A stretch of 56,983 nucleotides of DNA, filler included, from Platydemus manokwari (taxonomy: Eukaryota): assembly GCA_037951405.1 (NCBI GenBank). It is 5 parts of 5 records of this genome, joined end to end, with 100 filler letters (N's around TTAATTAATTAA, not from the genome) between each part and the next. Parts side by side here need not be neighbours in the genome. Positions count along the whole stretch, not along the records: positions 35,842 to 45,583 come from JBBMOY011211209.1; 4 more parts are not named here. One strand, written 5' to 3'. Both the position numbers and the translations under genes were made by a program. A model generated the notes under the pieces. The model was not told where the DNA came from, ran no database searches, and saw only the letters and a list, made by a program, of their open reading frames with translations. Below, one piece after another: positions 12,357-49,289 of the stretch. Position 1 is the first letter of the stretch. Every line of letters starts with the position of its first letter.

Positions 12357-14545
12357 AATTATTTATGAAATCCTATGAAGATTTATGTTACAGACACATT
12401 AAACGCCGATAAACTATTGCCAGTGAAATATCTCTTTATCCCAGACTTATTAACCGATAAGTACCAACTTCAATGAAGAAATTCTTTTTCCGTAGCGATT
12501 CACTCATTAATAATCAATCATCGGATCAGTTGTGATAAAAATTTTAATTCGTTCAGTTATTTGAATAGCTTTATTTCTGACAACCCAAAATGTCATGAGG
12601 AATATATTCAACACTCGGTTTTATCCTCTTTTACGTTCATTGTGACATTTATTGTTCAACACTTCGTTTTTTACGATTATTTTATGATTTCATTTTTTGT
12701 TCATTTTTGAACGGATATCATCTATAATAATAATAATCTCTCAATTCATAATCTGTTGTATTTTTTTATTTGATAATCGTTGATAAAAAAATACTTTTAT
12801 CAATTTAAAATCTTTTCATGAATTTATAAAAATAATACTGCTAGAAAGCGATGTACATATTTCTTCAATATCTCGTATTTTTACATATAAATATCTTTTG
12901 TATTTTCGTTGTATTTTACTGGTAATTTTAACGATTTATTGTGACAAACATATCTCTCAGATGACAGCAATTTCCGGAGTTCTTCAATTAAATCCTGTTT
13001 TTGGTAATTTGAAGATTTATGCTTTGTTTATAGATCTAGAAAAACGGATACCAGGAATAAATTTGTTATCGACTGATTTGCAGTTGGAGTGATTGATTCC
13101 CATAAGATAAATCTGTAGTTCTGTTATTCTATATCGAATAAGAGTTTTCATTTATATTTTGGTTTAATTCTTGGCAATTTTCGGAAGCTCAAGTGTGTTT
13201 CCTAATGTATAAATGTTTCGAAATATGTGAAGTTCTTATCAATGTCCTACATGTGAATTCCTTAATTTTTTAAAAGAATGAGTTGTGAATCCATCAACTT
13301 TACATCGATTAGCGTCGAATTTATACCCGAGATATAAATTGATTGATAAATTTTGTAGTTCTTTCTAGAATTGGTTAGGAACCATGGATTGGAACACACG
13401 AGTTCTTTACTCGATTTCATTTTCACAAATCTTATATTAATTCCATTTTTCGTTTCATATCTACATAATTCTCACAGTAATTTTATACACCATTGATACA
13501 CACATCTCAGTGTGCAGTATTTAACTCTATCAGGTAACGAATTACAAATGAGCCTTATTATAAATCGATATAACATTTGAAACTATGTAACTGCTGACCT
13601 TATTGTATATTGATAATGGACGGAAAATTTTTATTTTGTCATGAACTTTACAATTGATATATAACCACAAAATTTTCCAATTCTAAAAATCGTTCTTAGT
13701 TAAGCAATTACTACAAACCAATTAGAGTGTGTGAAATATAAATAAACTGTCTCACCGTCCTTAAGATGAGATATGAAACAATACATTGATGACATCAAAA
13801 TTCATTGGAGTGTATGAAATCTCTTTGTGTTGTTATATTTTATATATATTATCAAATTATAAGTTCTATGAGTTTCGATTCTGTTAACTTGACGAATTGC
13901 TTAATATGACAATTTTTTTCTTTATATTTATATATTTTTTGTGGATTTACCGGTGTTCATTTCGGATCTTGATTGTTGAAAGAATTATTTTTTTTTCTTA
14001 TGGATGTAATATTTCAGAATGTAATATCGAGCGGAAATCGTTATTCGTTGAATTTAATGGCCAATGTGTCGATTTATTTTTGTTTGGAATGTCTGTTGAA
14101 AATTATTTTTAGAATGAATTCAGCATGTTGTGTTTTCCAGTTGATTCGTGCCAGTGTTGATGTGGCTTATGTTGAATAGTTTCGATAGTTTAATCTCAGT
14201 GACTATAAATGATAAATCGTATGGATAAATTTTTTATATTATTTATTGATTATTAGGACTGAAAATTTTTATCGTTTTATCTTCTGGAGAAAAGAAACTC
14301 AGAAGCTGTGTGATTTGTTTCCTTAACTGGAAATATTTTATCATGAAATGTATTTGCCGTATTGATTAAAGATTTTGTCTTTAAATATTAAAATATTGTT
14401 AAAAGAATTAATTTTAAAATATATTAAAGAATGATAATTTTTTGTTTTAATCGACAAAAATATTATTCTAATGAATAATTTCTTCTATGCTTGCTATTTA
14501 AAATTCACCGGTTTATCGATTCGGAAAAAAAATTGTTATTGTTGG

Positions 14546-14913: not shown

Positions 14914-15661
14914 ATTAGATTTTTGTGATCATATAATTATTATTATCACTGAACGGTTTATTTTTTTCTGTTCTATATTTTCTCATAATTTCTACCGGGT
15001 TGACATTGATTTGATAATTTGAAATCAATGATTAAAAACAATAAAATATTATCGATACCTTTTTGTTTTAAATATTGAGCAATTCTTTAATAAATTTATC
15101 ATCAGAGTATTTTAATTTTGCTATCTGTAGAAATTATTTTTAAAATAACTGTGTCGATTTATGGAAGATTTTTCAATGTTGAAATAATAATATGATAAAT
15201 ATATTTGATTTCGGGATTTTAGTTTTGACCTTAAAAATTTTATTACACGGTCATATTTTGGTAAAGAAAGTCTATTAGCGAACAAAATATATGAATCTGA
15301 AATTAAATGATTTATGTATGATTGGATAGATTGGGTGTGTTATTTGAATAACATTTCATTTCATTTCTAGCAATTTGCAATGCACGATTCTTCTGTATTG
15401 AGTGGCAAATCTGAGCAAACAACTGACTCTAAGAAGATCGGAAAAGTATTTTTAATGATATTGAAATTTATTTTGTGAGCTTTAATGAGCCATATTTACT
15501 TAATGATACAATCGAAAACAAACTGAGATAAAATGGATTCGTTTTCATGCGATTTATAGATGATAATGTACATCAATATAATATATGAATGGCAGATTTA
15601 TTTTATTATTAAAATTTATTTTATTATTAAAACACTCAATTTGTGTCTACAGTGATATATA

Positions 15662-16179
15662 CCGTGCGATTCATAAGTCTCTGTCTCCAAAAATGAAATA
15701 AAACAACGGTAAGAACAAACCATGAGATATCTGTGATCAGACGTTTGTGATGTCACACACACTCGTGCAGTTTCTCGTTGATTTGGGCCATCATTCTCTT
15801 TTTCAAAATTTACCACATTTTTCTTCATGATTTCATCAGACGGTCTTCCTGATCGCAACGTGGTGGATAAGTTTCCAGTTTCTTCGAATTTCTGTTTCCA
15901 GTATTGCACTGTTATCCTAGCTGGTGATGCACGATTGAAATGTTATTGAAATTCTTGACAAGCTTTGACACTACTTGCATGGCTAACTATAAGCACTATC
16001 GCCTAGCGAAAATTTAAAATCACCAGCTGCTTCCGCCATATTGTAATAATGCAACTGATTAATAAGAAAAAAGAAATAATGTACATTAATCAGTGAATAA
16101 TAATTAATATCAATGAGTATAAATAATATTGTTTTGTTGTTTTATTTTAGTTTTAGACAGAGACTTATGAATCACACGG
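15662..16179 (-). mobile_element. Non-autonomous Tc1/mariner-superfamily element (518 bp) retaining the N-terminal HTH DNA-binding region
   Basis: TIRs CCGTGCGATTCATAAGTCTCTGTC (15662) and CCGTGTGATTCATAAGTCTCTGTC (reverse complement, ending 16179), each flanked by TA. The internal minus frame reads QEFQ*HFNRASPARITVQYWKQKFEETGNLSTTLRSGRP, the typical W..KF.ETG.....RSGRP motif. No DDE domain is present. Confidence 0.88.
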
Positions 16180-19079
16180 TATATTACAATATATATTGTA
16201 CATTCAAGAAAATAACGATTATCTGAACACAGTAAACAAACCCAATTGATCTTCTTTAGAGCTTCTATTATTTCATAAACGAGGATGTTGTAGAAAACAA
16301 ATTCAAGCCACGACACACATTAAAGTGTTTGTCACCAAATTATTTAAATTAATCTTTTAAATTTTAAATCATTTTAAAACCCCCACGTAGTTGATAAATA
16401 AAATCACCACTGATGGATTAAGGTGGTTTAAAGTTAAAAGTTCTACCAGCTTCGGAATTGCTGGTTTATTTGCGATTTATCAGCTTTAGAGTGCTAAATA
16501 TCAGATAGTTAAATACTACTCTTTCTCATCAGAATTGCCTGGCTATTTTTTCAATAATTTTAAAGCGACCAGTTTTAGAATCTAGATGCCAACATTGTTG
16601 ACATGATATTTTGACTTAAACCAAGGAAATTCCTCTAATATTTTACATTGTAAGATGGAATAATCAGAATTCGTTTCATCTACTCTACTAAAATTTTTGA
16701 AACAAAGAAAATTCATCCAAATTGAAGATCGACTCTACAGTCCTAATGTCTGCTAGATAAAATATGCTCTGTTTGTCTATTGTCTGAGAATTCGTTGGCA
16801 ATTCTCCACAATTTCTATAGGAATAAATGTAACTCAATAGATTCTATTATTGTTCCGTATTATAAATGGCAAATAGATTTTCTATGCGAAACTGTTTGAC
16901 GAATGTTCTATATGGACAAATGTTATCTCCTATACTACTTGCAAATGAGGAAAATATATCATTTTTTGTATTATTGAATTCCCTTGTATCGGAATTGTTA
17001 ATTATATTTCACTATATTTCAATAAATATTGTTGAGGTATTTTGTGTATATATATCGATGAATTTGTCAACAATGGTTACTGTTGTTTTATTCATAAAAT
17101 GTTTTGTGGGTAATATTAATTAAAACTGAAAGACTATAATATTAATAATGTATATATAACAAAAACAAAAGACATAATCATTGAATTCGAAAGTTAAATT
17201 TGTTGGTTGGTTTGTGTGTTAATATGATGATTTAGGACAAAATTGGTCAATAGCAAATATAATCAAAAAGATTTCATTACAGATTATTCACACTTAAAAT
17301 GGACGGTATGAATGACAAGTGTGCACCTAAAGGTGAGAGTTGTGTGTGCTTGAGTGAAGCCTATAAGAGATTCCCAGTAATATTTAACTATAATTAAAGC
17401 TTTTTATTTTTTCGAATGTATCATTCTCATTATATTTTTTAAAAATGTTTGAGGAAATCACACTGTAATAACAGATATCTACTTGTTAAGGAGTATTTGA
17501 TAAATTGCATATTTTGATTTGCGTACTCGAATATATTGAGGCTAATGATAACATTTTGAAAAAGGATTTGAATAAAAATTTATTTATAAAGTTGCCACGG
17601 ATTCTGTCAGATATAATATAAAAATGTCTTAAACTGTGGGAATTTCATCTCGAAAAGGTGAGCACAGTGGGTAATGGTTTTGATACTAGAACTGATATAG
17701 ACAATGAAAATGATAACTCCAATAGATTCGATATAGATAATGGATAATTAACGAATACTCTAAGTGCCAAACTAGAATCATCAGATGAGTAAAGGACATA
17801 CGCAGCGTGGATTTAATACTCATCAAACCTGGTATTAGCTTATCGATCTTAATAAAACTTTTCTAATCGGAAAAGAATTACCTAACTTAGAATGTTACTA
17901 AAATAAAAGCGCATAGCGATTCGAATTAATCTTAACCATCAACTGAGACAACAATGATCGTATGACCAATCCTTCGGAGAGTGTCTCACATTTTGACAGG
18001 ACAAGTTTGCCAAATTTATCTTAAAATCATATATTTCTGAAGTAAATATTTATTATAACTGGTTATCTACAAATTCATTTAATGAAATTATCTTGTCCAA
18101 CTTCTCAAATTGAATCATATTATATGTCTAAACCCAGTCTGATGTGTGCCATTTATTTAATATTTTCGTAACCGATATTAAAGTAGTTTTAATAAAAGAA
18201 TCCGCAATTATAATTATATCAATCAATAAATCCTTGATAAAATTTAGAGAATTCTTTATAATAAACCAGACATACGCTGAGATCCAAATGAAAAAAAATA
18301 TTATATTTATTACAAAAGTAGATAAAAACGACAAATGAATATTTTTTTGCATTCATCTTTGTAGTTTCTCATCCTTGATTGAATCAATGAATTTTGTCTT
18401 TCACTACCATCAATCAATCAACCATTTGTTTTTCTGTCATTTGAAGAGTTTTTCACTGGACGCGTTCTTTTAATTTTCATGACGCCTCTATTGACATTTC
18501 CATCACTAAATTATTGTTGTTTTTTATGCGTTTACACTCGCATATGATTATGTTTTGAATTCGGACTTTTTTCGGTCAGTTCTCCGTGAGACCGACTCGT
18601 AGATTGGCATATTTCCATTGCATAACCAGTTTTTCTTTCCATTTAACTCTATATTGGATTTAAAATAGGGGAAAAAATGAAGAAACGAGCGAAAATATAT
18701 GAATTCACGTTTGTTATTTTATCGATTTATGATAAGATAAAAAATGTCTGACTTGTTTAGTTGGTGCGTTATGTAATAGTTGAGTGTGCTTTTGAATAGA
18801 TCTGTGATAGGTCTATTTATTATTGCGTAAGTCCTCCGATGAGAAAGGGATTGATAAAAATAAAGTACTTTAATATCCAGACTAAGAATATTCGCAATTA
18901 CTGGATAAATTTATTATCGGTTTAATTATCATTTACTTCCTTTTCTTTTACACTACACGAATAATTGAGAAACCCACGTTGAAATTATTTTTCCTAGTAC
19001 CTTGAAACCCAACATTACATTATTAGCTCTGGAAATATGAAAGTTATCTTATTAAAATGGAAGATATTAAATCAAAACA

Positions 19080-26600: not shown

Positions 26601-26850
26601 TCCAATCCCGGTACCCATTCATCTGTCCATCCTGTATATTTATATTTCCATCTCTGCTCCATTAATAATTCCAATTCCGGTACTGTTTCTTTTCCCTTGG
26701 TGGTTATCCACTCATAATGACTATCCTCTTCTTCACTTATCATTTGAAACTCTATTATAGCTTTTCCTTCTGCTCTTCTTAGATTTTCTCTTCCTCTTTC
26801 TATGTCGTCAAACGCTACTCCTCCTCTAACTGTAGATCTTTTATATTGAT
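26601..26850 (-). mobile_element. Second copy (contig-end fragment) of the purine-rich multi-UBL element
   Basis: The reverse complement GAAATATAAATATACAGGATGGACAGATGAATGGGTACCGGGATTGGA nearly matches 40681-40728. The frame is open for about 80 codons (...KAIIEFQMISEEEDSHYEWITTKGKETVPELELLMEQRWKYKYTGWTDEWVPGL) and is cut by the gap. Confidence 0.85.
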
Positions 26851-28072
26851 AGAAATATTTTTTTTCGTGTTGTCGTTAATGAGAAGCAAAGATCTATTTT
26901 CATTTTCTAATGAATTGTAGTAGCTAAAAATATAATTTTACGTTTTTCATTTATTCTTAAGGATTACATTACATATATTAGTAATTGAAACAATGATAAA
27001 AACTTCAACCACAGGAATACACAATCTCTTTTTATTTCATTATATATAACTGATCTTTAATATGAGTTGTTTATATTTACTTTTGGGCATTTTAAACATG
27101 ATGATACGAGTCTTGAATTGTAAAATGGCTACGTTTTTATTAAACTAAGTCTCATAAATGTCTTATCGGTTGGGGGATGTAATAAAATATATTAGTTCCC
27201 GTTAAGATTATATTTTTCCAATTCCAAAATTTATATTACATTTTCGACATTATGTGTTCTTTTATTAATAAATCATTTGAAAATAATCGAATCCTCTAAC
27301 AATATTAAAATTACTTTTGAAAATGAGTTCAGATTTAAAACAAAACAACAAACAGTAAAAGAATTTTTGGATCATTTGAGGTCATCTCAATTGTTCAGAA
27401 ATATCTATTTGTTAGTTGAATTGATGATAATGTAAATTGTTTGATAATTATTGTAAGAGTTGATGCTATTGTTAATGAATGGAACATTCAGTATAATTCA
27501 GACAAATCTTTTGATCTTATTTTAGTAGCAGACATCTGAATTGTGTTCATGAAGATTACATTTTATTTTCAGCATTTTCATTAAATATTATGGTGAAAAT
27601 TAATTTTCATTGTTTGATTATAAAAATCATTCGAAATTTCATGTTTTCATTTCTATAAATCTGATGATTTTAATATTTAATTTAGTTTGTTGTGAAGTAA
27701 TTTTTCGATCAAATTAATCCATATTAACAATAAATACAAGATAAATAGTAACTAAAATCAAATCAATATATTGATTAATTTCAGCAATATTAAGTCTGTT
27801 CAGATAACCTATTGAAGAAATAATGAATTCGGAATATTGATAAAAAATTGAATTTTAGCATTTTACCTTAAAAATTTATTTCTAAAAATATAAAAAGATA
27901 ATTGGTGACATTGAATTGATTTCGAGCTTTAGAAAATAATGTGCTTCATTTAATATTTTTTTGATATCTGTGTAAGAATAAATTGGCACAATGCATGTTA
28001 CTTATTAAAATAACGAAAATTACATTATTATTGTTATTATGAGCAAAATAATATTTTGCTTTTTAATGCTAG

Positions 28073-31000
28073 ATGAAAGCACTTTCTCCCAAATCGATCG
28101 ATGGGTACAAGAAGTCCAATCTGAACGCAAAGGAAAAGCTGTAATTGTTTTAGTCGGCAATAAGACTGATTTAATAGAAAAGAGGTATAAAAATTGGATA
28201 ATACAAATATTATCCGATTATCATTCACTTATTTCAGATGCATTACTGAAGAAGTTGCTGCCAAGAAAGCAGAAGAATTAGGTATATTATTTATGGAAAC
28301 TAGTGCCAAATCCGGCCATAATATTAAACAGGTATCTATTTATCCATTAATTATTATTAATTATAATAGTTTATAATTATGTTTGGTTTGAAAAATGAAT
28401 TAATGAATTTTTTAAAATGATTTCTTTCTGTTTATAACAACATAACCCATAATAATAATAATAATGTTATTATTACCAATTTATAGCTATTTTTATTTGT
28501 TAAATATTTGTATTTTTATTAAATGACTTTCATTTTAAAAATAACATTATTAATTGTTCCTCAAATTTCCTGTTGACTTAATGGTTTAAGTTACTTTATC
28601 AATTTAACTAGAAAAATATTTTGAATTATATTTTATATTTATTTTGAAAATTTGATGATGTTTTGTAAATGAAGTTGATTGAAATTCTCTTTTCCAATTG
28701 TTTATATGATTAAATATCAATAATATTTCCTCTGTTATAGATTGCATTGAATCTGTAGCTCAATATGGTTTTTTTTGCGATATTTTGGTGGCACAATAAT
28801 TTTATATCAAATCTTATAAAATCATCAAGTCTCAACTATAATTGCTATGGAGGATATGCTGATATGAAATCAAAATGCAAAACCAATATGTGTAACTGAT
28901 ATCGAATATTAGTCAAATGTCTCCCGTCTCTGATAGAGTAACTATATAATAAATATTTCGAGATACCGACGTCCAGAAAATTATTTCGAAATCGCTTTAT
29001 CGATGGTCTGCTTTTTGCAATTTGAAAATGTTTAATCAGTAATCCTTCATATCCATTAAAATGTATTTATTTCGCTGTTAATGTTAATTTATTAATTAAT
29101 ATCCTTTTCCCAATGAACGTGAGGTTACAAGCTGATCTCCAAAGTGTGTATCTGTTTATAAAAATGAAATACTCATATTGGTTTAGGTAGTGATATTTGA
29201 ATAAATAGAATTCATTATTTTTTATTCCAACCACTATCAGATGGAACTTTCATTCAATCATTTATTGTCTATTCACTGATATTCATAATCAACTTATTTC
29301 AATTGATGAAACATTTATCATTTTGTTTGACCAAAATCAATAAAAACCCTGCCTTGAATATCATTGTTATCGCTTTCGCGGCATTATTACGAATGCATGA
29401 GCGCAATCTGTGTGCGTGAAATTAGCAAAACTGTGAAAAGTATATTATATGTTTTGAATTGCTTTTAAATATGTACCTATTGGTTTATTTAATCAAACAA
29501 GGAAATATATTTTGACAAAACATGTATTTAATTGTCTACAAATGAGAAGAGGTCACTATAATTGATAATGTATATCAGAGCATCGGAATGAATTGAGTTA
29601 TATTTTTATATTACAAAAGTCGTAAATAAATTCTAATAGTAAGTTAAGAAAATATTCATTTCTTAAAATTTCTGGTATCCTAAAACCTTCATATTTTTAC
29701 TCAATTGCTATCAACTTTAACTTATTAAAAGAAATCTTAAAGTTTTTAATACTCGTTTTACAAATATTCCCTCGACGTTGTTTTGGTTTCTTGATTCAAA
29801 GAAGATAAGCTTCTTTTAAAATATTATTATTTATCATAAATGATTTATGGTTAGTGAGTACTTATTAAATTGTAATTATGACAGAAACAGATGCACGATA
29901 AATAGCAGACTAATTTGTCCGTTTAATGCAATAATGCGCATATGATGATCTCATTGTAAGGTTCTGATGTTCGTTTATCACAATGAACTCTATGTGGAAC
30001 AATGGAGAACAATTTTTTAATTACTACTTTATATATCTATTAAAAGGAAAGTTATTGGTTTCGAAATAACTTCTTGTAGAAAAATTTATTTATAATAAAT
30101 GTATTTAGGCTCCTGGAAAAAATTGTATTATATGTATACAAATAAACATTGATAATCGAGATCTCCATATATTAAAATATGGATGTTCATGGTTCTTTCT
30201 TTCGATTGTTCCATGAATCACAACAACCTTTGTTGCTGTCCTCATTATCGGGTGAAACCTCGATTGTAGATACCTCACATTTATATTTGACTTTGTACAA
30301 GCAAGAGATGTTTTATTTATCATTTTCTTATCTATCCCTAATTTCTTTAATACTTTACCCTTGGTCTGTGTTTGCCAAGTTTCGAGAACCCTTACATCGA
30401 AAGGGAATAGATCAGTCTGGCCGCTTTTTTGATATTCTTTCTTTCTATATTATTTTGGGCTGTTTCTGTCGCTAACACAGGTTCGTTCATGGGGCATTTT
30501 ACATATATTAGGACGATCGCGAATTTTTTGAACATCCACCTTTTATTTGAATTGGCATTCTTTCTCTACAAAGACTCTATAATCAATATTTTTAACAATT
30601 TCCTTGGACAATATACCATGATTCTTTTGTGACAATAGAGTACAAAAGAGTGGGATAGTTTGCAGCAGGTAAAAATGTGTGTTCGCCATTCCACCTCATA
30701 TCAGCACTTTCTGTATGCCATCCCTCATGTTCTTTTTTTCAGAGTGGAAAGGTTTGAGCGTTATGAATAAATTTTAATTCAGCAATAATGAGGTGCCCAC
30801 TAAAAATACTTTTGTTATAGACCCCATTTCTAATTTGATTAGTTCAGTCTAATTGGTAGCAATTTTGGTATTTTTTTTGATTTTCTTTGGTTCCACTATA
30901 GGGCTTCTTTCGTAATTGGAACCATTGATTATAAGGCTTTGTTGAACTTTTAACATTATCTCACTGTTGATAAGAATAAAAGTAACCGTGGCATATATTT

Positions 31001-34000
31001 TCTTGGAGGCATATTTAATGCTCTCTCTCATTTTGCCTCACCACGTTTTGCTCCTTTCATTTGGTAGAAGGCTTCTTCGATGTCGAAAAATCCGATGTGA
31101 ACGTAATCCATATTTTTTACTGATTTTAAAATGGTTCAAAGTAAAAGGTTTTGTTCGGAAGACACGTCATTTGGACCTAGACTCTTGAGTGAATGTATTA
31201 AGTTTTTTCATCAATACAATTCTGCAGTTGTTTGCACAATCTAGTTATGAAAATTTTATAGCTGTATTAGGTTCCTTATCATATTGAGTTACATAAATTG
31301 TTTCCGTTTCTATTTCGCTAAAGTCGATATTTTAGTAACTTTCTTAACTGAGCAATAATTTTTACGTGGTCTCGTACATGATCTTTGAAATTCTGGAAGA
31401 TTTGTTTTTTGTTTCTGTTTTTCCTCGAAAAGTTGAAGTATTTTTAAGTAATTATAGTTGGCTTTTATGTATTGCGTGGTTAATTCAAAGGCGGCGAATC
31501 TTGTGTGATTAAACAATATCCTTAGTTTCAAGTCAGGTTCATTTTTTTCGTCATTGTCTCTAACCAAGTATGTGTTACTTGGCGATTTAATTGTGCAGAC
31601 AGAGGGAATGGATTCACAGTATTTGCTAAACATTTCATCCAATGTTTCAATTGTTGGCCAGTGTTTCTGTTAATGATTTCCTGATTTCAAATGTATCTTT
31701 ATTGCCTTGATGTTTATTCTTATCAGTTGAAAATCACGGCTAATGTTCAGCATATATCCAAATGCCAGAGGGGTATTTTCCACAAAATTGCATTGTAATA
31801 ATCTGGTCTTTGAAGGCTCGATTTCTTTGAGTAGCTTTTTGATCCATATTATTTTGGAAATATTTCTATTTACGTTATTTTTTTTATCATCTAGATTATC
31901 ACCTCTAGGATCCAGTAATAAAATCGATTTTTTGTTACAAATAATATGACTAGAATCCAGTGTTCAGGTTTTATCAGAAATTGGCAAAAGATAATTTCCC
32001 TATTTTTGAAGTACTGGAACAACTAGAATTCTAGAATGTCTTCTACTTCATCGTGTTTGAATGATTTGCCAATAAAAGGATTGAATACTAGAAATTTTCG
32101 ACACAAGGCTATCATGTGTCTTCCTGTAAAGGGAATATGGCCATTCTGATTTTCTGCATTGTCTGGTTCCATCGCAGTTAAATGGAACGTTTTGTTTATA
32201 TTTTCTTCTAGTGGTTCTGACGTCTACGCCTATGCAAAATTGGTTACTGGCGATGCAATCAATGTAGCCGCATATTAATGGGATGCAGAAAAAGTTATTT
32301 GTTTGTAATAGTCGCTGTTTCTTAGCGTAGAAGTTTATTTTTATCTTTGAATTTTTCCAAATTGCGATTTCTTACTTGAGTGTGTTGCATATCCTCTTAG
32401 CTTCAGTTTCATATATTAATTCGATAATACTCAGTGGGTCAAGTACATCTCCCTCGAATAGGTAAGCGATTAGTAGCGTCCAATGTTGATTTCGTATATT
32501 AATTGAAGCAAGGACCCTTTTACATGATATGAGCCTTGTGATACCTATTTCGTTGAGGCTGGCTCTGTTTGTAAATAATTCTTCAGCATAGCTACTGATG
32601 AGTAGGCAATCATTCAACTTAACGTGTGTGGATACATATTTATCAATCTGGTCTCTGGAGAACCATCAAAAGTCAGATTCTGTGTAGCTCACGGTGCAAG
32701 ACAAGGAGTTCTCAATATTTAACAGCCTTGAACTTGGGATGGTTGACAGGGATCATTTCTTGTTTAAGATTTTCGTTGACGACGTTATGGCTTGTTTATC
32801 CATTAAGTTCAGTATTTTTTCTTGACTTGAAATGCTTTTTTGATTTTTCGAGAATAATCATTAGGCTTAGCATTTCTTCTTAATTTGCATAGCTTTGTTG
32901 AGTTATCTTTCTTATATACTCTGCTATAAGGTCGCATTTCATCTTTTATTTTCCTAATTCAAATCTTTTGATGAAATGGAGAAGGTCGGACCTATATTTG
33001 CTGGGAAAGGATCATAGAACTTATCCAATTACTTCGCATTATCGATTTGCCATGACAACAGAGATGATGCTGCCGTATTAATTTTAATGGGTGTTTCATT
33101 GAAATGTAAGTGTGGTTCACTGATCGAACTCTCCAGAACTATGGTAGGCATCTCTGTTTGAGTAGATAAGCTAACCATTCAGAAGTTTCTCTCTTTAGTT
33201 TGTATTCTATTCTTGGTTTTATTTGGTTTGAGGATATCCGGGCTTATGGTTGTAGTTTATATATTTTTCAGTTGTTTGACTTGAGAATTCGTGTTGTTTT
33301 GTATGCTATTGTCTAGATCAAGCATATTGTATGAGTTTTGATTATCCAGGTTACGTCTTTTATCATTATTCAATGTACTAGTTGGCTGAAATATATCTTT
33401 TAGGGTTTCCATAAGTTTTCGTTAACCTCATCTTCTATTCCATAATCACGAAGATTATTTTTGAATTTTATTAGTGTATCTTTATTATTTGATGCTTGAA
33501 TATTAGTAGAATTACAGTTGATACAATTGGTACTTGTTATCATGTTTGTTTCCTTCACTCTCTTTCTTTTTCCCCAAGAATTTTTCTGAATTTATCTTAA
33601 GTTGTTTTGCAATGTGGTACAACTTTTAGCGATCATATCTCAGTGTTAAGAGACCATGATTTGTCGGAGTTAATGGTATTAGAGATAATGTGTCTCCCTT
33701 TTTACTTGGAACGCATCTCATTTTTTCTACCATTTTTCTTGTATGGTCAGTAGGTGATGAGTTTATATTAGTTTTTTTGATTTTCTGCGAGATTCCCTTT
33801 GGAGTTTCGTCATTATTTCCTCTTTATCATTTGGAAACCTTCATCTTCGAGTGTAATTGGATCTGGTTTCTTACCTGTGCCTGTTATTACTTTGTCACCG
33901 TATGCTTTCAGTTCACAAATTACACAACATTTTCAAAGGGCGGTCTTGCATTGGTTTTGTATTGTCTCTTCTCTATGTGGGAGTATTGGTATTTTCAATA

Positions 34001-34984
34001 GGGTATTTCGATAAGTATTTCTCCAAAACATCTGGCCAATGGGTCAATTTGTTTGTAACCATTTAGCGTACCATGTCTTGTAACTCCGGCATTACTTGAA
34101 CGAGTGGATTGTGATCCCTACTAGCCTTTATCTTTGGACTAGAGCTTTGTAAGGCTTGACAACGTCCTGGAAGTACTCGTCATAATTGTCTAACTACTCG
34201 GATTGTCTTTCCTGAGTAATTTTAGGTTTTTCTTGCGTGATTAGTTTAGAAGTTTTTGAATACTTCTTGTTAGAGTTTGTCCTGTGACTGTATTAATAAT
34301 TAGTCCTGTCATCCTTGTAGGAATACTCATCAAAGTCATCTTAATCGTTAGAGGACAAAAGATTTTTCTTATACATTGGCCAATTGCAAAAGCATTATAA
34401 ATTAAATTTTAATTAGCTTCGCGGAAGATCGTAATTGAAACGGTTTCTAAGTTTAAGTTTTTCTAATTATTAGTAATTTCCAAGTTTTATGTAATATTCG
34501 GTAAGTTAAAACATTTCGTAGTTTCACGTGAGGGATTCGATTCAAACAACGAAATATTTTGAAAGTTGTATAAGATAAAAGAAATAAATTTCTTAATGTA
34601 AGATAATTAGGGATCATTTTATGTGTATCTTTTCGAGAAGTGTTCTTATCAGTTTTGATCATGATTATCCATTATATATAACTATTTGTAATGAGTTTAT
34701 TTTTATAATTTAATTTTATTTTCCCTTTCATATAGTTGTTCAAGAAAATTGCAACAGAATTATTAAGCAAGGAGCAACCAAATCCAAGACCCAGCGACTG
34801 TAATTTTTAAATTTTCAATTCATTTCTTAATTGTGCTTTATTGATTTGCTATTTATTAATGTACTTAAACAATTTAAATAATAGTCGATATGGAATTTAT
34901 GAAACCATTTTATTAGATATTGAAGTCAAGTTGAATGACAATCAAGGCGAATCAAAACCAGAAGGTAGTCGATGTTGGTGTTGA
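28073..34984 (+). CDS. RAB6: Rab6-like small GTPase, 3' four exons (5' exons not in this contig)
   Basis: Exons 28073-28184 (ESTFSQIDRWVQEVQSERKGKAVIVLVGNKTDLIEKR, G4 NKxD), 28238-28331 (ELGILFMETSAKSGHNIKQ, G5), 34736-34799 (LFKKIATELL...) and 34917-34984 (IEVKLNDNQGESKPEGSRCWC*, CXC prenylation motif). All introns are GT-AG with consistent phases, and their positions correspond to the Rab6 pattern (KR|, KQ|LF, before I.vKL). Confidence 0.9.
30105..34400 (-). mobile_element. Decayed retroelement with two tandem Ulp1/C48-like cysteine protease domains (NeSL-clade-like), inside the 6.4-kb Rab6 intron
   Basis: Higher-GC block with long minus-strand frames. Domain 1 (about 32250-32660): WFSRDQIDKYV...RVLASINIRNQHWTLLIAYLFEGDVLDPLS...RLLQTNNFFCIPLICGY. 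Domain 2 (about 31740-32100): FLVFNPF...IIFCQFLIKPEHWILVIL/NKKSILLLDPRG...RLLQCNFVENTPLAFGY. Downstream frames only faintly resemble an RT N-terminus. Boundaries are approximate. Confidence 0.7.
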
Positions 34985-35857: not shown

Positions 35858-38424
35858 ATGGTTATTTTTATTTTTATAATCTTTTCGTTGTATAAACTTA
35901 TTTGAAAATGTTTAAATGATGATACAATATTAGGTAAATTTAAAACTTCTTCTTGTAAGTGGTAAAAGTTGCACAATAGAGTTTACTTCTTCAACGACTG
36001 TCTCAGAAATTTGTGATTATATTTTTCTCAATTGGCCTGATGGTTATTTTTTATTTGAAATTTTTCAAGTATTTCATCCGAATTTGCAGATTGGGATGAA
36101 AAACCAGATGATAATATTTTAAGATTAATCTACCATGGTAGATTTCTTAATTTTGACACGAAACTGAAAGGTAAAATGAAATAAATTAGTGATAAAATGG
36201 TTATGATTGTTTCAGATCTCAATTTACCAGTTGGTATTGTAGTGATGCATTTAATATTCAGGAAAAACATTCCACAACCTGGTACACAAGGTAAATGATT
36301 TAACAATAAATTTAAGATGATGTTGATTCATGTTTATTTGATGAATGAATGAATCATTGAATATTGGGATTGGTATTGAAGTATTGTTGGATGATGTGTG
36401 TGTGACGTGATATTGATGTGCATGATATTTATCATTGATATTTGTGAAATAATTTATCATTATTTGTCTCATTTCATCATATTGATCATTTAATAATATG
36501 TCTGTTATCATTTCATGCTGATATTCATCGATTTTGACATGAAATTGGTATTGTGACGATATCGGGCCGGTATTTTCGCTTGTTTTTGAAACGATATCAC
36601 ATATGACAACTTAACGATAATATTTGAACGAATTAATTTTGGTATCAAGCTAATGGTTTATAATGGTATTTATGATATCCTGTCTTTAGTTTTAATTGAT
36701 TTCATATTTGCGACGATATTTTGATCGTCTGTAATGTTTTCATAGAGATATCGAATCAATATCTGCTGTCTTTATGTTTAGAAAGTATTTCGTATAAATA
36801 TTGACATCGTTTTTCCTTATTTGGTGTGATTTTACACACAATTTGTTGCGAAATAATTCGATATCATCGGTATTGCGGTATTGCGGGGCAATATCACACT
36901 CTTTTGATATCAGTTTATCTGGTTATCGACGGCATATTTTGTATTCCTCTCTAGCTTTTATATCGGGTTTTCTTTTGAAAATTATTTGATCCATCAGTAT
37001 TTTGGCGATATTTTGTCTCTGAACAAGAATTGATATCGATACCGTGACATTATTGGATATTATCGTGACGATATTTATTCTTTTCATTTTATCCTTTATT
37101 GACCTAGTTTTCATCCGTTAAATCCAGTATCGCGCATGGCTACATAATATCGTGATATAAGGAAAGGAAAATACCATGTTATCTCGATACTGAAATATAT
37201 TTGGTGGTGGCGATATTTTTTCTTTGATTTTTGATATAATTTTCATTGATTGTGTTGGAAATGATTTGGTTACAATAATATCACTATGGTATCGGCAATA
37301 ATGCTTCTTTTTAAGATAAATCGATAATATTACAACATCTTTGTGATATTATTGGATAATATATATATTTGTTAGCAATACCTATAGATATGATTATGAT
37401 TATTGAATCATGTGATCATCTCAATCCATATCAAAGTATCACATGACCAATTACATCATCGATAATAATCATTAGTAGGAGTGATATGTTCAAGCAATAT
37501 ATCGTTACAATATCAAATTGGTCGGAATGAATTTATTTTTTATGATAACCAAATAGATAGGTCAATGAAACCAATTATTAAAAATGTCACCACTATCATG
37601 CTTCATTAATGAATGACATTTGACTGGATGCTATAGGTTTCAATTGATAATTTTATCCATTCCCATTCACATGATTAATATTGTCATTCTATCGAGTTGA
37701 TTCTGAAATGATTAATAATAGCGCTTTTGATAAAATCTCTTTTAACACAGTATTGAATTTTCGTTGTGGATTTCAAATCGTATTTCAATTGGTTGATAAA
37801 AATAGCAAATGGCTTGATATCATTAATTATATGTTAGGATTAGAGGATGGTTAATACAGCAAATATAAATATATATATCAGCAGAGATCATCAGTAAAAC
37901 AGCACTAATTCATAGGATTGATTCCATTAATCAATGTTGCGCTGAGTTTCACATTATTTATAGAATTGTATTGACTATGATTTATTGATGATCCTATTTT
38001 GGAAATGTTATGATGATCACAATAATCAATAAATCTCAATTAATAAAGCTGATTCATATCAGATGGAAATGAGTTCATAAATGAGTTCATAAATATTTCC
38101 AATGAATGAGTCTGGATAAAATTATCAATAAATATTTCCAATGAATTATTTTCATTGAATTTATTGTGTTGTATTTTCATCAATCAGGTTCAACGATATC
38201 CGAAATTGGGAATGTCATTTGATATGATTTTTTGTTGGAATTAATTATTATTGTTGCTATTGGCATGTTGTCTGAGATATGAATTAAAATCTATTCATCT
38301 CACTTCATTCAAACAACCAACATTAATCATAAATATTGAATTAATAACATTCGATTCAGAAGATGTTAAGAAGAGCAAGTCTCCCAGCCATTCTTGCTTC
38401 AGGTCGTGCTGTTGTATTTGCTAG
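35858..38424 (+). CDS. UBL3: Ubiquitin-like protein 3 (UBL3 / membrane-anchored ubiquitin-fold protein, MUB)
   Basis: Exons 35934-36042 (VNLKLLLVSGKSCTIEFTSSTTVSEICDYIFLNWPD), 36090-36170 (DWDEKPDDNILRLIYHGRFLNFDTKLK), 36216-36290 (DLNLPVGIVVMHLIFRKNIPQPGTQ) and 38360-38424 (EDVKKSKSPSHSCFRSCCCIC*, CaaX-type end). These match UBL3 motifs INLRLILVSGK, NWPMDW, ILRLIYQGRFL and VMHLV. The likely start is the ATG at 35858-35860 just before a GT donor (less certain). Confidence 0.93.
36535..37526. mobile_element. About 1-kb non-autonomous foldback DNA element with imperfect TIRs and many GATATC/ATATCG subterminal motifs (CMC/EnSpm-like), in the last UBL3 intron
   Basis: The left end AAATTGGTATTGTGACGATAT matches the reverse complement of the right end, AATTTGATATTGTAACGATAT. 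The interior is unusually CpG-rich, with many (C)GATAT(C)/ATATCG motifs in both orientations. Confidence 0.6.
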
Positions 38425-38713
38425 ATCGCATAATAATGATGTCGATCAAAAGATATCTGTGATGAACCCGATCATAATTTTATCATATTGTAAACTGCAC
38501 AATGCATTTTTCACTGTGTACATACATATAAACAAAACTATTTGATGATGGTTGATCCAACACATTGTGTTACTGCCATAGTTTTTCGACTTTACCACGT
38601 ACACTACAATTTGTACATTACAATTTTATTTTCTTAATTCTTTTATTCAATCTATTTGCTGATAGCTTTGATATACAAAATGGTTCATTTAGCACGCTCA
38701 CAGGCACCAGGAC

Positions 38714-38714
<1 letters not shown>

Positions 38715-38756
<42 letters not shown>
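38715..38756. repeat. (ATT)14 microsatellite
   Basis: Perfect triplet run, the source of the poly-Ile in ORF 38565-38837. Confidence 0.95.
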
Positions 38757-40680
38757 GTCAACAATATTCGTTATGACGTAACAATATTGTATAAATATCA
38801 GATCCTTCATCGATATGCTTCAGAACTCAACAAGTGAAAACCGTTGTTGAAGTGTATTCTGTGATGGATTTTATTTTAAATGACTTCTCATTGGTGCTTT
38901 GTTCCGATTGGTCATATTAATTTATTGATTGATTTCGTCTGTATATTCTATAGATAATCCATTATTGTTGCCAATCATTTTGTTGTCATTATATTAACAA
39001 TGCTTTGGCATTAATATCAATTGTTTTTCTATTTCATTAATCAAACGAGCTTTATATAAACGACCAGTTTCGGAGTCTTTACCTATCAGATAGTGGATAT
39101 TAAATTAATCATATCATAATTCGCTCGCAATTGGATTCGACCTCTTGCCCATTTCATACATATTCATTATTTAATATCACTTGATCGTCCAAATCATTAT
39201 ATGATTCACTGAAGTAAATGATGATAATAGATTAACTAAAGGACATTTTAGTGATATTTGTTGAAAGGTTAGAAGGTAGAATATTGAGTTCAGGATTTTA
39301 GTAAAATCACTGATCCTGATTCTAATCCAATATGATCTATTGCTAGATAGTTTCAATCATATCGGATCTTGAAGCATTAAGTTAAAATAAATTGTGAAAT
39401 ATGCTTGAATGGGATGGGAAAATGAAGAGATATTATTATTTGACATGTTGTATAGTCATAAAAATAATTATTTTCATTATTTATTTATACATTCCTAAAT
39501 TTTAATAATCTGTTCCAAAGAACCAAATCAAAAGGCGTCAGTAAATGAATGAATAGTTTGTTTTTTTTGTTTTATTTCACAATAGCAGTGATGAGAGTTT
39601 AAACAAGAAAACAAATCATAGTCATTATACAAGTATAAAAAGGAAAGCTGATTAATGATGTATTGGTGTGAGAGTAAAAATTAGCCTATTTTCTAACATT
39701 TCTTGACTATTAATTGCATTTATAATGATGCTTGATGGTGTGTCATCGGAACAAGTGTTTTCTCTTTCATTTGTATGATTTAATTTATAATTATTTAATT
39801 TTTCTAGTTTAACTTTGAAATATTTCCTAAACACGCGCAAAGGGTTGATTTTTACTTTAATGTTAGGTTTGTATAGTTATAAAGGCGGCTTTATACTTTG
39901 CACTATTTTGATGATAATAATAATTTAATCAATACGGTCTATACTGTCTGTGTCCATATAGGACTTCTAATTTAGAATGTTGATCATAGTGCAAATGATG
40001 ATGGTATAGGAATTGATCCGAATGGAAATATTGATGATATGAAATCGCATCGATTCCTGGCATACATTAAAGTCAAGATTAGTGCTATTAGTGATATTTA
40101 TATCCTTTTAGTTTTTTATGCTCTATTAAGATGTTCTGACGAAGCAATAAAATAGTTTACTTCATCCTAAATATGTAATCAGACAGGCAATTCTAAAAAT
40201 TAAATTTTTATTTTAATGAATTTCATTAAAAAAAATAGTTCGTCAGCATTAATTAGTCCATATCGCATTAAATCACCTCCAACTATAAATTAATAATCAA
40301 ACAAAACTGTATGTATTCCTATGTCAATATTTTGGTGCCCTGTTTCGTCAATAAACCAGTAAATTATTTTCGCCAATGATTAAATTTAATAATTGATTTT
40401 AATTAGTGTATTGATTTATTCACCAATACCAAATAAAGTCGAAATATTAGGAACCCAAATGATCAAACCTTGAAACTCAATTTAATCTAACAACATATTT
40501 CAATGAGCAAATGAATATTTCGATAAAATGAGGACCAGTTCAAATTGAATCGAAACATTTTCGATTTTTACTAAATGGATTATATCGGTGAATCAATATC
40601 ATTTGAAAAATGAAGTGTTTTGCAGAAATTGTTGATGGACTTTGGACTTTTACATACAATATATATAAATATAAATATAA

Positions 40681-43600
40681 GAAATATAAATATACAGGAT
40701 GGACAGACGAATGGGTACCGTGTTTAGATGAAATAATAATGTTCATGCAAGGAAGACAACTCATGATGACCAGAGATTTAAGGCTCAGACGGGGACAGAT
40801 AAACAGAATAGTAGCAATAAAAAATCTGAAGAGATATCCAAATGGAATAATAGAAAATGGAATTGTCAAATTATATCCAGGAAGCCATTGCGAGGAGCTA
40901 ACGCACGAAGAAATAAAGTTAACGGTGCAAATAGATTTAAAAAATAAAAAAAGGGGGAACAACAATAAAGTCACTCACAATAGATGATGATACAAGCATA
41001 AGCGAAATATTGCAATGGATATTAGGATTTTGGCCAAACGAGGAAGATCCAGAATACTGAGTAGAGGCATGGCAAAGGGATCACCAGTCACAGAAGAAGT
41101 AATATTAAGTGATTTAGGGATGACGCAAAAAACGAATAATGAGCTGACTATGATCGCGCATTATAGTGCATATTATTATCAAAAGAAGAAGCGAATGGCG
41201 GAAGGAAGGAAAAAGGAGATTAAGGAAGTAAATATGATGAGTTGTGTCAGGAAGCCGGATGCAAGAGATGAAATGGAAAGGTTGCAGGCAATAATATCAA
41301 TATTAGGTGAAAAAAAATCACGATAGGAACACAGGAAAAGATACAAGCGGTATTGAGACGGAAAGACAAAAATAAATCAAGCCTAGAAAAAGAGACGACA
41401 ACGTTATGACTTTTGGATGAGGCCGGATGACACGTGATTGGATAGGTTTAACAAAATAGAGAACAAATTAATTAAAAAGGACTTACCAGGACAGATATTA
41501 TTGAGATGAGTCAATAAGTGATAGCGTTCAAATATCCACAGCTTAAGGAGAGAAAATACTACCCAAACCCTTATTATGTAGAAGGATAAGCATACAGAAT
41601 ACGAGAAAAGTTAAGAAGGATAAGTATGCCAGAAGAAATCATACATGAGTTAAGCAAAGTAATAATGCGGTATGAGCAAGGAAAACAAGTTGAGTTATGG
41701 AGACAAGTTGAAAGAGAACAACTGAAAGAAAGGGAAAGAGAATTCCCTCAAGGAGATACCAATATATATGACGGGATTAAGAGGAAATTCACATTAATAA
41801 TACAGGACAGTGAGGGAAAGCAAGTGCAATAGGACATGGAGTTAGATATGTTCACATCAGTCCAACTAATTAGGAAGTTAATAATATTGGACTGGCCAGA
41901 GGAATTGGAGAAAATAAAAGGAAAGGTGAAAATGAGGTTTAAGGACAGAAGGATGACAGAATTGAAATGTATAGGGGAATACATAAAGAATGACAAAGGA
42001 GACACATGTCTAGCCATTGATATAATACCAGAAGAGGCCAAGAAAATTTTGCAGATTAATATGATAAATAAAGAAGGTTCAGAAGAAGATAGCAGTGGAG
42101 ATGACCAGCAAGAAAGAGAATGGAAATCAGTAGAACAAAAAACAGAAGAACAAATAGAAAAAGCAACAACGAGTCAGATTCCAACAGATAATAATACAAC
42201 TGAACAAAAAGGATGAGTTGGCGTAAGTAGTAATGAATATGACTAGCGCATTACAGGAGCATCAGTTTGAGAGTGGTAGTAGTAAGTAAATCAGAGAGTA
42301 TACGAAGATTACGACAGATGGCAACGGCGATGTGGCCATTTGTAACTTTCAAACCATTCTTGGTAGAGCTAATACATCATGGTATGTTTATGGAAGATGA
42401 TAAAACATGCAGACATTATTTAATAAAAAGAAAAAGACGAAATGTGGTGGAGGTCATGATCCATCAAGGAAAAGGATCAACATGAGAGACACGAAAAGCT
42501 AGAACGTTTTTTAAATGGAGGTCTTTGAGATTTCATAGGACAAACATTCCAGAACTACCATTCACGCATGATGTAAAATGGGGAGAATTACCGGCAACAA
42601 TAAACAATCAGCAAATAATAGACTTGCATCTAGTGGCAAGACAGCATGGACATCCAGATGTGGAAAAATTAAGAATGTTGGAAACGGCAGAAATACGATT
42701 CATACTATATTGGGCAGACGAATTATGGCCATATAGGAATGAGAATGGATATCTTATGTATCATTATAAAACAAGAGAAAGTAGGGAAGAATTATCTGTG
42801 GAAGGGAGTCAATTAACAGATTACGAATTATCAGGAAAGCGAGTAAATTATGTCTATTTAAGACATAGGGGTAGAATGGATTATAACTGTTACCCGTTTA
42901 TATTGAAGATATGGGAAAGCCCCTGGACAGAGGAGAAAGACCACATAATGAATTGGCCAGGAGATGTGGTAGTGGAAGCAATGAAGGAATACATTAGACA
43001 AAATTTCCTAATGAGAGAGCATGTCGACAAACTAAGCATTACACTTTATAACAAAGGGGTAAGACTGAGAAGTAGAGATTTGTTAGAACAATATCATTTA
43101 AACCGTATAATTCTAAACAATTTTGGAGTTCTGATCAAGTATAAGGAACCGGTTGAAAAAGAAATAAGGGAATTATATATAAATGCCAATCGAATAATAG
43201 GAGTAAATTTGGACGAAGAAGAAGTCACTCCAATAACGAAAAGTAGTGAGGAAAAATCTCCAAAATCAGCAAACTCTAAATCAAGTGAATTAAATTCCGA
43301 TGAGGACTTTTTGAAGGCATTAGGATTGAGAACGAAGAAAATAGATAGTACAATGGATATGGTGGAAAGAATGCCAAAAATTCAGCTACAAAAAGAAATA
43401 GAAAAGAAATATTTATGTTTAGGATGTATAGGAAAGCAAGAACATAAGTGTCCAAATAAGGAAAGGATAGAGGAGAAAGCAGAACCACAAGAAGAAATAA
43501 TCAAACAAATACAAGAGGAGCGAAAAGAGGCACTGGCGCTATAAAATAGTACTACCAGGGAGCAAGAAAGTGTGCCAAGGAAGAAAATAGTAACCCGTAT

Positions 43601-43745
43601 AGAGAAGGAGAGTGTAGTAAAACAAGGGAAGAAGACGAGGACGTCATATTAGAAGAGATAAGTGATGAAGATAAAGATCTAATAGAGCCACCAAGGGAAG
43701 AATTAAGAGAGGGGGAATTTAGGCTCAGAGAATCAACAGAATCTC
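40681..43745 (+). mobile_element. Intronless purine-rich multicopy element fragment encoding a decayed polyprotein (about 1000 codons) with tandem UBL3-like ubiquitin-fold domains
   Basis: Abrupt shift to A/G-rich coding-like sequence. ORFs 40610-43544 join through single stops or frameshifts. Repeated units of about 80-85 aa follow a beta-grasp pattern (e.g. LIHHGMFMEDDKTCRHY; DDTSISEILQWILGFWP; LYNKGVRLRSRDLLEQYHL). A homologous copy lies at 26601-26850. No RT, integrase or transposase is visible in the fragment. Confidence 0.65.
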
Positions 43746-45583
43746 TGTGCTTCAGTTAAATATATCAAACTCATCTGCCGACATCTTGGTCCTCAATACC
43801 AGGTGTTGAAGCCCCATAGAGTCAGTACCTTTAGATCAAAGCGCCAACTAATTAACTAAATCAATACCATTATCTAAAATCATTTAAACAAAAACCCCAA
43901 AGACCAACATATTTTTCAATAACATGGTTAATATTATTTTCACAAATATAAGCCTCACTAAGCTTAAATATTTATAATATATGAATGACTGATTACCTTG
44001 TCACAGGGGTATGAAACACCTATTGGTCACGACGATATTACTAAACCTTCACGATGTGTCACCTTATTTCCCGAGCAAGGTGGATAAATAATTTCTTTTC
44101 TTAACTATAACCATTATTATTATCGTCAATATTATTTATATTATTTATATTATTAATATTTTTTATAATAATATTATTAACATTGAATTTACTATTAATA
44201 ATATTATAAAGCATAGTGACATAGTGATATGACTTATTATTTTCGTTAACATTAAAACAAGAAATAATGAGCGAACAATTAAAACAAACTGGCTGGTGAA
44301 TCAATATAAATAATGCAGCGAAATTTTTTGGCTCTCAATTGTGAAGGTTTGAAGTTGTTTTAAATATGTCGATAGCTGTTTAATTCTCTTTCACATATTT
44401 CCCGATGAATTTTCTACTCGCCCAATACATATTTTAATGTTTATAATTGATTTTTAACAATTCTTTATTGATTAATAATTTGTTTTTCATTTTCAATATG
44501 TGTATTTAACCAATAATCATATTTAAAGTCATTTTGCGTTTACAATTCTTTCTCTATGTCTTTCTCCTTTACATTTCCTACTTATCCGGGCAAACAGACA
44601 GACATTAACATGATAAAAACGAAGTTTGTTTTACTGCAATAAACTGATAGTCAGAAAGTTAAAACTAATGAGAAATATTCTGTAATAATGCTCGTGAGTA
44701 TTATGGAGATGTTTGATTGGATATTTGTTATTTCGCACTTGTGGAACATTTATTGATCGATTTCATAGTATTTTCTTGTTTCGGGTAGGAACTCAAATAC
44801 ACAATCCTTTAATTATCTCATACGTGATATTTTTTCTCATATTCACATGCCTAATACACATTGTAATGCCATTTGTGCTTCAAATATTCTGAAATGCCAA
44901 TTATAAGTTATAATAATTAGAAGAAAATTGTGGCAAAAGAGACGGTAAATTTGTATCTGTAATTCAAACAAAATCGTTAAACTGAACTCCAAAATTTTTC
45001 ATTTAGTAAATATTTCAATTCCATTATCGGGTTAGAATCCAATCAAAACCATAGTCAATTATAATTCCAATCTCAATTTAAAAGTCATTTGAATAATAGT
45101 TTAATTTGAATTTGCGTTTAGATTCATCCTATTTTTCGTGTGATTAGTGAGCTTGGTACACTTTCAGCAATATTGTATGGGCTTTAATCTTTATTCATAC
45201 AACAATGATTTTTATTCGATAATAATTACAACTGTTTTGATTCTGATCATCCTTAGTGATTCTGATTATAATTATCTGTATGTAAAATGTTAAAGTCATT
45301 GGAAAGTAATTTATATGAATAGCGACGATAAAGATGTTGGGTTTTGGGGCGTATGACAATTTTTAACATTATTTGCATGAAAAAATTTTATTTTTGCATG
45401 AAACAACATTTTTTATGAAAATTCAGGGGAATTTTGTAATATAATATAATACATAATTTAAACCTCAATTTATAATCCCTATAAATAACGATAAAAACCG
45501 GCAATAATATAATAAAATTAAATACATTAAAATTACCTTATAATAAATTCACTGATTAAAACAAAACACATAGTGAATTTATC

Positions 45584-47935: not shown

Positions 47936-49289
47936 TTATTCTTCATAATCAGGATAATCCTCTATATAATCCAATGTTTCCTCATGACGAATAGATTCAT
48001 CGACAGTGATATCATTCCAAGGATAACCATCTTTATAATAGTTTTAAAATTGTTTTTTCCATCTTTCTGTTAAAAATCAAGGTGATCGTTGACAAAAATT
48101 AAAAGGAAAAAATAACCAGTATGTTGTTTGAAAGGTCCCCCACATCCACCATGTTCGACTGGTAATAGATCTTTCAATCCAGGAATATGTTTGTATGTCT
48201 CTTCTAGGTTATCAGTTCGAATAACCTTAAATTATTTAGGTAAAATAAAATAACCACGATAAATATTTAAAATAATTTTATTCCTAATATTGGCTTAATA
48301 TTCGAAATTTAATATAAAATTACCGAAAACTAAAATGATAAAATATATGAAAGCAAAATAACTAGCTCCGTACTTTACCAGCAAATAGTTTACTCGTATG
48401 GAATGACCACATCTTGAAAAATCTATCAAAAGTGGATGGTAAATTAAGAAAAACGTGGACTTCGAATCGCCACTGGAAAATATCCTAATAATAGTGCAGT
48501 TAAATTTAAAAATAATAATAATTTAAAAAATCACTTGATAGCATCTTGCGATACGGGATAAAAATTTATTATCAGTCCACAAGTCCACTAATCCTTGAAA
48601 AGCGTCTGCCATATCAAATAATACTCTAACTCCATGAATTTGAGTCTCTTCTTCAGACAAAATTACATCGTATCCCATAAAAACCAGTGCAACGAATTGA
48701 TCTCTAGAAATTCTTTCCGGACAATAGTTTCCTTAAATTTAAATTACGTTGATTAAAATAGCACTATTTCAGCTTCCATATTTATGTCATTATAAATATT
48801 GATAAATAACATTACTTAAAGCAAGAAAAAGAATCATTTCTCCATTTTCATTCCTGCCCAAAGGTGTAAAACATCTAAATATATCAAGATTTATTTAAAT
48901 ATTAGAATTAAGAAACGACTGTGAGTCCAGAAATTCATCAATAATCGCTTCATCGATATGGGCATAATCAAAAAATTCTGGAGATCCTCGATTAGTACTT
49001 CTAACTGTACAAAATGAATCCAAGCGTTTTTGGGCTGCTTTCATATCAAATTTAGCTACTCGTAGAAATCGAAGCAAGAAATCAGTATCTATTCAATTCA
49101 TTTATGATATAACGATAGACATTATCTTAATATATTACCTGTTGGACATTTGAAATGTGGCATTGCTATCGCCCATTTTCTCAATTGTTCAATTAATTCG
49201 TTTATCTGTGATGGGTCCTCATTCAAAATATCGATAGCTAACTGTTTTGTTGAGTCGCTGATTTTTTCATAATCATATTTAGCAGTCAT
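47936..49289 (-). CDS. CRAL-TRIO lipid-binding protein (alpha-tocopherol transfer protein/clavesin-like), 7 exons; in-frame TAA at 48044-48046 in the last exon
   Basis: Exons 49139-49289 (MTAKYDY...LNED...LRKWAIAMPHFKCPT), 48920-49088 (DTDFLLRFLRVAKFD), 48816-48874 (PLGRNENGE), 48535-48731 (EEETQIHGVRVLFDM), 48374-48484 (NLPSTFDRFF), 48117-48225 (LLPVEHGG) and 47936-48066. All introns are GT-AG with consistent phases. Confidence 0.92.

Follow-up and report, generated by a model that had tools for sequence, protein, structure and literature searches.

A stretch of 56,983 nucleotides from the Platydemus manokwari assembly GCA_037951405.1 (five parts joined by filler; the whole stretch is called the window here) contains at 40.7-44.2 kb a high-copy dispersed repeat that is a genuine mobile element. 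Sequence comparison of its coding region supports a similarity, above chance, of four tandem units (B-E) and half of another (A) to the ubiquitin-like (UBL) protein UBL3. We see about an even chance that the repeat is the decayed, 5'-truncated 3' end of a long terminal repeat (LTR) retrotransposon whose last open reading frame (ORF) carries four to six UBL3-derived domains acting as a non-conjugatable decoy or scaffold. Coordinates are those of the window, and features lie on the plus strand unless stated otherwise.

To assess repeat status, contigs of one public sequencing run, which may be the source sample, were placed on 35900-45500; the depth obtained is a rough measure and not a copy number. 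Depth by bin was 10-34 up to 40714, jumped from 34 to 952 at ~40715, remained at 563-1112 across 40715-43603, and was 13-23 across 44246-45208. The preliminary description of this DNA had called the stretch mobile-looking, and the depth bears this out. A total of 1386 contig records aligned, 126 of them at ≥99% identity and 583 below 90%. Most joints among the 15 of 30 listed were internal deletions, and many copies are diverged and internally deleted. The copy in the window is 5'-truncated at ~40681, inside an AT-rich microsatellite-like stretch, and the coding strand of the element region is purine-rich (A 43%, G 24%). Its 3' end contains two features.

43705..43717, plus strand, polypurine-tract-like run of 13 bases, ending at the loose-end cluster at 43718
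43718..44110 (3' end approximate), plus strand, LTR-like terminal segment, delimited by loose ends, depth and a composition shift, with an ATT-rich tract behind it

These features suggest that the carrier is probably an LTR-type retroelement, seen here as a 3' ORF, a polypurine tract and a 3' LTR, with solo LTRs in excess. A polypurine tract is expected immediately before the 3' LTR, and the run at 43705-43717 abuts 43718, where nine contigs show foreign letters ahead of the border. Purine runs of ≥12 bases with GGGGG occur only twice in the whole window, counting both strands, and this is one of them. Base composition shifts at the start of the terminal segment from C12/G24 to C21/G13. The terminal repeat is also commoner than the internal region, as expected of an LTR, with depths of 6633 and 2094 in its two bins. 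Depth changes little along the ORF and then climbs steeply in the terminal segment; progressive 5' truncation would look different, and we read the excess as solo LTRs. Several points weigh against an LTR carrier. The first bases of the terminal segment are TT, and a clear CA is missing at its end (in an old copy with approximate borders); it contains no clear AATAAA, and the window contains no 5' LTR. No gag, protease, reverse transcriptase (RT), RNase H or integrase was detected in the window (144 open, 11 open and 21 read-through frames), the copy being 5'-truncated. BIR, MATH, BCL2 and env Pfam domains were likewise absent from the part of the element within the window.

The same UBL3-like array might instead ride on a Penelope-like or other non-LTR retroelement, a DIRS/Ngaro element, a Helitron or a Polinton, with the terminal segment as the abundant 3' end of that carrier or an associated short element. 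We judge this the less likely reading, though one to be taken seriously. It would fit the 5' truncation of both window copies (the second is described below) within ~230 bases of each other, the microsatellite-like AT-rich flanks at both ends, the non-canonical LTR termini and, close to the 3' end, a hairpin at ~44059-44082. However, there is no steady climb in depth as the 3' end of the ORF is approached, and the loose ends gather at one point right behind the purine run. Moreover, Rfam gave no match at the gathering score, hammerheads included, and no hammerhead at E≤5 in 43400-44500, where the only match was a chance small nucleolar RNA; minimal hammerhead variants can escape such a search. 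A hammerhead-like motif at ~43990-44030 was rejected, as it has a non-canonical core, an unpaired stem I and no Rfam match. ATT/AAT-type microsatellite tracts occur at 11966-12365, 38712-38774 and 44102-44210, the last directly behind the LTR-like segment.

Upstream of the purine run, the coding region is arranged as follows.

40682..40828, plus strand, C-terminal half of unit A, similar to the UBL3 tail
40910..41167, plus strand, unit B, UBL3-like, with two frameshifts and one stop (hidden Markov model (HMM) score 11.5 bits)
41168..41781, plus strand, charged linker, heavily broken, which may conceal a degenerate extra unit at ~41338-41598
41782..42030, plus strand, unit C, UBL3-like, with one in-frame stop (HMM score 7.1 bits)
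42227..42470, plus strand, unit D, UBL3/ubiquitin-like, with one frameshift close to its start
42612..42869, plus strand, unit E, UBL3-like by sequence, in open frame
42885..43148, plus strand, unit F, UBL- or ASH2L-like, in open frame
43149..43759, plus strand, acidic/serine low-complexity tail; past a break, the open frame runs into the terminal segment

The peptides quoted in the preliminary description were located in the plus-strand translation where it had placed them. The damage is greater than the few stops and frameshifts it mentioned: a path drawn by eye through 40682-43759 has to change frame about eight times and crosses five in-frame stops, so a single polyprotein across the units is only presumed. 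The longest open frame (42486-43544) encodes 352 aa. As previously described, a WP pair is retained after the predicted helix in units B-E, and no di-Gly end occurs in units B-F. In unit F the WP sits elsewhere. A CaaX box is absent from the units and from the end of the ORF, and none of units A-F has a PFG or PVG lap-bar loop. Self-BLAST of the element revealed no DNA-level repeat between units, and their protein identity is 19-26% to the first alignment row. The ORF tail (43149-43759) had no Pfam match and contains a C-x2-C-x5-H-x-C motif at ~43412-43450, a possible zinc site.

The yardstick for these units was the host's own UBL3 gene, on which the preliminary description was silent.

35934..38424, plus strand, host UBL3 gene, outside the element; exons 35934-36042, 36090-36170, 36216-36290 and 38360-38424, first exon not located

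The gene shares the strand of the element, stops 2.3 kb upstream of it and has a Pfam Rad60-SLD_2 match. With GT-AG splicing its open frame is 109 aa long and ends in CCCIC, and the introns (47, 45 and ~2070 bases) lie inside the domain. P0001, a close relative, matches 2gow, the structure of human UBL3 (E 6e-23), and the host gene is of the animal type. At the lap-bar position it has PVG rather than PFG.

Each unit was aligned globally to the spliced host UBL3 core, with X placed at breaks, and compared with 3000 shuffles; the shuffle and background figures are optimistic because the borders of the units were set by hand. Protein identity to the core was 23-28%. The real score was equalled by only 3 shuffles for B, 18 for C, 3 for D and 12 for E, and by none for the tail of unit A against the host UBL3 tail. 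In contrast, six linker and tail controls were equalled by 1394-2642 of the 3000 shuffles. Among 5436 background segments drawn from the six-frame translation of the window itself, the number beating the unit was 1 for B, 13 for C, 10 for D, 47 for E and 1507 for F. The candidate extra unit at ~41338-41598, an X-joined path laid post hoc, was matched by 22/3000 shuffles and is a lead only.

Profile searches pointed in the same direction. With an HMM of host UBL3 and P0001, the shuffles per 1000 were 0 for B, 1 for C, 5 for the tail of A, 6 for D, 97 for F and 176 for E; in a leave-one-out HMM among the units they were 0 for B, 2 for E, 80 for F, 84 for C and 112 for D. An HMM built from B-E only recovered host UBL3 at 13.1 bits (0/1000 shuffles), and over 1896 tiles a host UBL3 exon tile topped all tiles outside the element. 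When the element-only B-E profile (A4) was searched against 177,635 PDB sequences, the best of seven matches was 1se9, annotated "ubiquitin family" (E 0.051), which we take to be Arabidopsis MUB1; the alignment spans the helix, the WP and G..L.D.KT..Y. A profile that included unit F (A2) placed polyubiquitin chains first in the PDB, with RAD23B lower. In the comparison with ubiquitin-clan profiles proposed in the preliminary description, unit D had just two Pfam matches at E≤10, ubiquitin (0.0073) and Rad60-SLD_2 (PF13881; 0.13), both under the curated cut-off.

Other results do not favour a ubiquitin fold. The score of unit F against host UBL3 was equalled by 1186 of the 3000 shuffles; of the six UBL3-like units originally proposed, B-E and half of A are thus supported, and F may be either UBL- or ASH2L-like. 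By phmmer, F matches the N-terminal region of ASH2L (E 0.0025, residues 2-48), numerically better than any UBL match, and its ESM feature match in the PF11976 (Rad60-SLD) cluster (score 0.83, rank 19/30) is a lead only. MAFFT misaligned unit F and short fragments. The preliminary description had also proposed AlphaFold with a fold search: the model of unit E came out Smr/Alba-like rather than beta-grasp, and there was no beta-grasp entry among the matches listed. A single-sequence model of E+F reached a predicted local distance difference test (pLDDT) score of 36, and fold searches with it were uninformative. The hhalign probability was low. The UBL3-likeness scores are all weak yet concordant, and structure prediction did not confirm the fold. 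The UBL3-like ancestry put forward in the preliminary description is supported by sequence for A-E. On balance we think it likely that at least four units adopt a beta-grasp fold.

Alternatively, the repeats could be small alpha/beta domains that bind nucleic acids, of the Smr/Alba/IF3-C kind, unit F being ASH2L-like, and their UBL3 likeness being due to the WP motif and the hand-picked borders. The model of unit E and its fold searches, the ASH2L match of unit F and the low hhalign probability all favour such domains; set against the shuffle, background and profile results for B-E, we consider them quite unlikely. A different objection accepts the UBL3 derivation and holds that the domains are passengers, duplicated cargo no longer useful to the element. 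The heavily broken window copy, the loss of MUB/UBL3 functional motifs and the internal deletions in other copies would suit this. However, units that share ~20-26% protein identity and no DNA similarity have nevertheless kept the hydrophobic pattern and the WP, which requires long selection at the protein level. Furthermore, at several break sites most aligned contigs differ from the window copy, so that these breaks look private to it. Together, these observations make passengers improbable. Finally, the proximity of host UBL3 on the same strand raises the question of a local duplication or processed-pseudogene array. Compared as DNA, the host coding sequence matches the element over 19 bases at best (E 0.012, not meaningful), protein identity is as low as given above, and the stretch belongs to a dispersed high-copy family. 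Contig depth and the missing DNA match largely refute this origin, which we regard as very improbable indeed.

Under the preferred reading of UBL3-derived domains in an LTR-type element, the element would have captured a spliced UBL3 coding sequence. Capture via spliced RNA is suggested because introns interrupt the domain in host UBL3 but not in the units. The domain would then have been tandemly amplified, and long ago, since no DNA-level similarity between units is left. Lacking di-Gly, the units would be non-conjugatable; lacking the lap-bar loop and the anchor, they are unlikely to be E2 inhibitors of the MUB type. This weakens the E2-decoy idea of the preliminary description, as the PFG loop and CaaX box of those inhibitors are missing from the units. 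The product may instead be a soluble multivalent platform that binds the backsides of E2s or readers of ubiquitin/SUMO, and such binding might make the element's products less subject to silencing or degradation. This decoy or scaffold function of tandem uncleavable folds is the least certain step, and we propose it tentatively. A more specific version, which we hold to be unlikely, is that UBL3 was captured by an invertebrate retroelement lineage, lost its lipid anchor and was multiplied to six or seven domains where env would lie, giving a polyubiquitin/SUMO mimic that would disarm SUMO-dependent silencing by PIWI-interacting RNAs (piRNAs) or, standing in for an envelope gene, recruit ubiquitin readers of the vesicle-budding machinery. 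SUMO is required for piRNA silencing in Drosophila, according to the available part of 10.1101/533091.

The preliminary description had also pointed to a second copy, which proved to be real.

26601..26875, minus strand, second fragment of the element, first half of unit A; blastn E 2e-13, coding strand A-rich, frame open

Here, 44 of 48 bases (92%) are identical between 26601-26648 (minus strand) and 40681-40728 (plus strand). The match runs into an assembly gap, where this fragment ends, and the fragment reaches ~230 bases further 5' than the copy at 40681. Its unit A head scored against host UBL3 at a level matched by 65/3000 shuffles. The two fragments lie in opposite orientation, 14 kb apart in window coordinates, with an overlap of at least 48 bases. 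A single insertion may have been divided by an inversion taking in the genes for UBL3 and the GTPase, or the element may have inserted twice; the gap hides the junction.

The window is AT-rich (22-35% GC), eukaryotic, and has four spacer-type gaps. Beside UBL3, Pfam identified exons of three host genes.

413-679 and 4210-4458, minus strand, GDA1/CD39 phosphatase
28009-28373, plus strand, Ras-family (Rab-like) GTPase
48526-49092, minus strand, CRAL-TRIO

These genes, like UBL3, contain introns. At ~30000-34500 (minus strand) the sequence is decayed and higher in GC; by eye it shows an integrase-like motif and two H-W...D-P-L motifs of the Ulp1 kind, which suggests a candidate Ginger1-like DNA transposon; Pfam on 12 read-through frames of this stretch found nothing, leaving the label unconfirmed. 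A Tc1/mariner-like fragment at 15616-16184 (minus strand) has a helix-turn-helix DUF4817 match (E 0.0017) and contains a 51-base inverted match (15657-15707 vs 16136-16184). Another high-copy repeat starts at ~45209-45500 (contig depth 2098), and repeats are also paired at 46482-46690/47934-48136 and 48124-48579/55159-55574.

Homology searches returned no protein homolog of the element among 1.84 billion protein representatives, and none in near-length or longer-length searches, viral contigs or metagenome contigs. ESM Atlas gave a single unnamed match (score 0.75) to the 352-aa ORF. Several ubiquitin folds per chain are found in the host scaffolds USP7 (UBL1-5), Rad60/NIP45 and OASL, whose non-cleavable domains are binding platforms, and in polyubiquitin. 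The scaffolds are host genes and not mobile. Polyubiquitin precursors consist of near-identical head-to-tail units with di-Gly, whereas the units here are diverged and have no GG ends.

The closest precedent appears to be the planarian Burro/GYPSM1 elements, gypsy-like LTR retrotransposons of giant size that have captured regulatory domains from their host (PMC6431247). In the available text of that review, a Ubi2/SUMO-like motif (PF11976) is listed once, flanked by MATH and BCL2 within the gag-pol polyprotein, and interference with ubiquitination is proposed. On this description, the present element resembles Burro in its probable LTR-type carrier, in captured regulatory cargo that probably includes a ubiquitin/SUMO-like fold, and in its AT-rich host. 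It differs in that its final ORF, ahead of the purine run, has four to six units of UBL3 type, and no BIR, MATH, BCL2, env, RT or integrase was seen in it. The MUB proteins, as far as the available text of PMC4996978 describes them, are single domains of ~120 aa with a CaaX box as anchor and a (K/R)xPFG lap-bar loop, and they inhibit UBE2D-type ubiquitin-conjugating enzymes (E2s) by binding the backside while the loop blocks E2 charging. The units share with UBL3/MUB the helix-WP pattern, the G..L/F strand motif, the absence of di-Gly and the best PDB profile match. Unlike UBL3/MUB, they are tandem, lack the CaaX box and lap-bar loop, and are distant from the host core; by these defining motifs they are not members of the family. 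Mobile elements with captured ubiquitin/SUMO-pathway domains also include Ginger1, Mutator and Helitron transposons, which carry Ulp1 or OTU proteases (PMC2836005, in part). Those domains are modifier-removing enzymes fused to the transposase, whereas here the fold itself is carried, in tandem. Crinkler/CR proteins, according to the accessible part of PMC5289972, have one N-terminal Ubl header joined to toxin/nuclease domains; they too place a ubiquitin-like domain in transposon-linked multicopy genes, but this element showed neither an LxLFLAK-type header nor a toxin domain.

The preliminary description did not recognise the architecture from described elements. The capture has a precedent in the Ubi2/SUMO-like motif of Burro, and in a full-text search for retrotransposons with a captured SUMO-like polyprotein part the Burro review was the only paper found. 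Among the papers listed by full-text literature searches, which had Repbase, the original Burro paper and supplements outside their scope, none describes a mobile element with UBL3-like domains in tandem, and the available parts of PMC11410931, PMC6338049, PMC8532177 and PMC10799480 contain nothing on such arrays. The probable tandem array of at least four UBL3-derived domains appears to be new. If this reading is correct, an anchorless, UBL3-derived tandem array would be a new kind of transposon cargo and would offer a direct handle on the question whether retroelements mimic the ubiquitin code to evade silencing or to bud. The otherwise single-domain UBL3/MUB family would also gain a multi-domain form.
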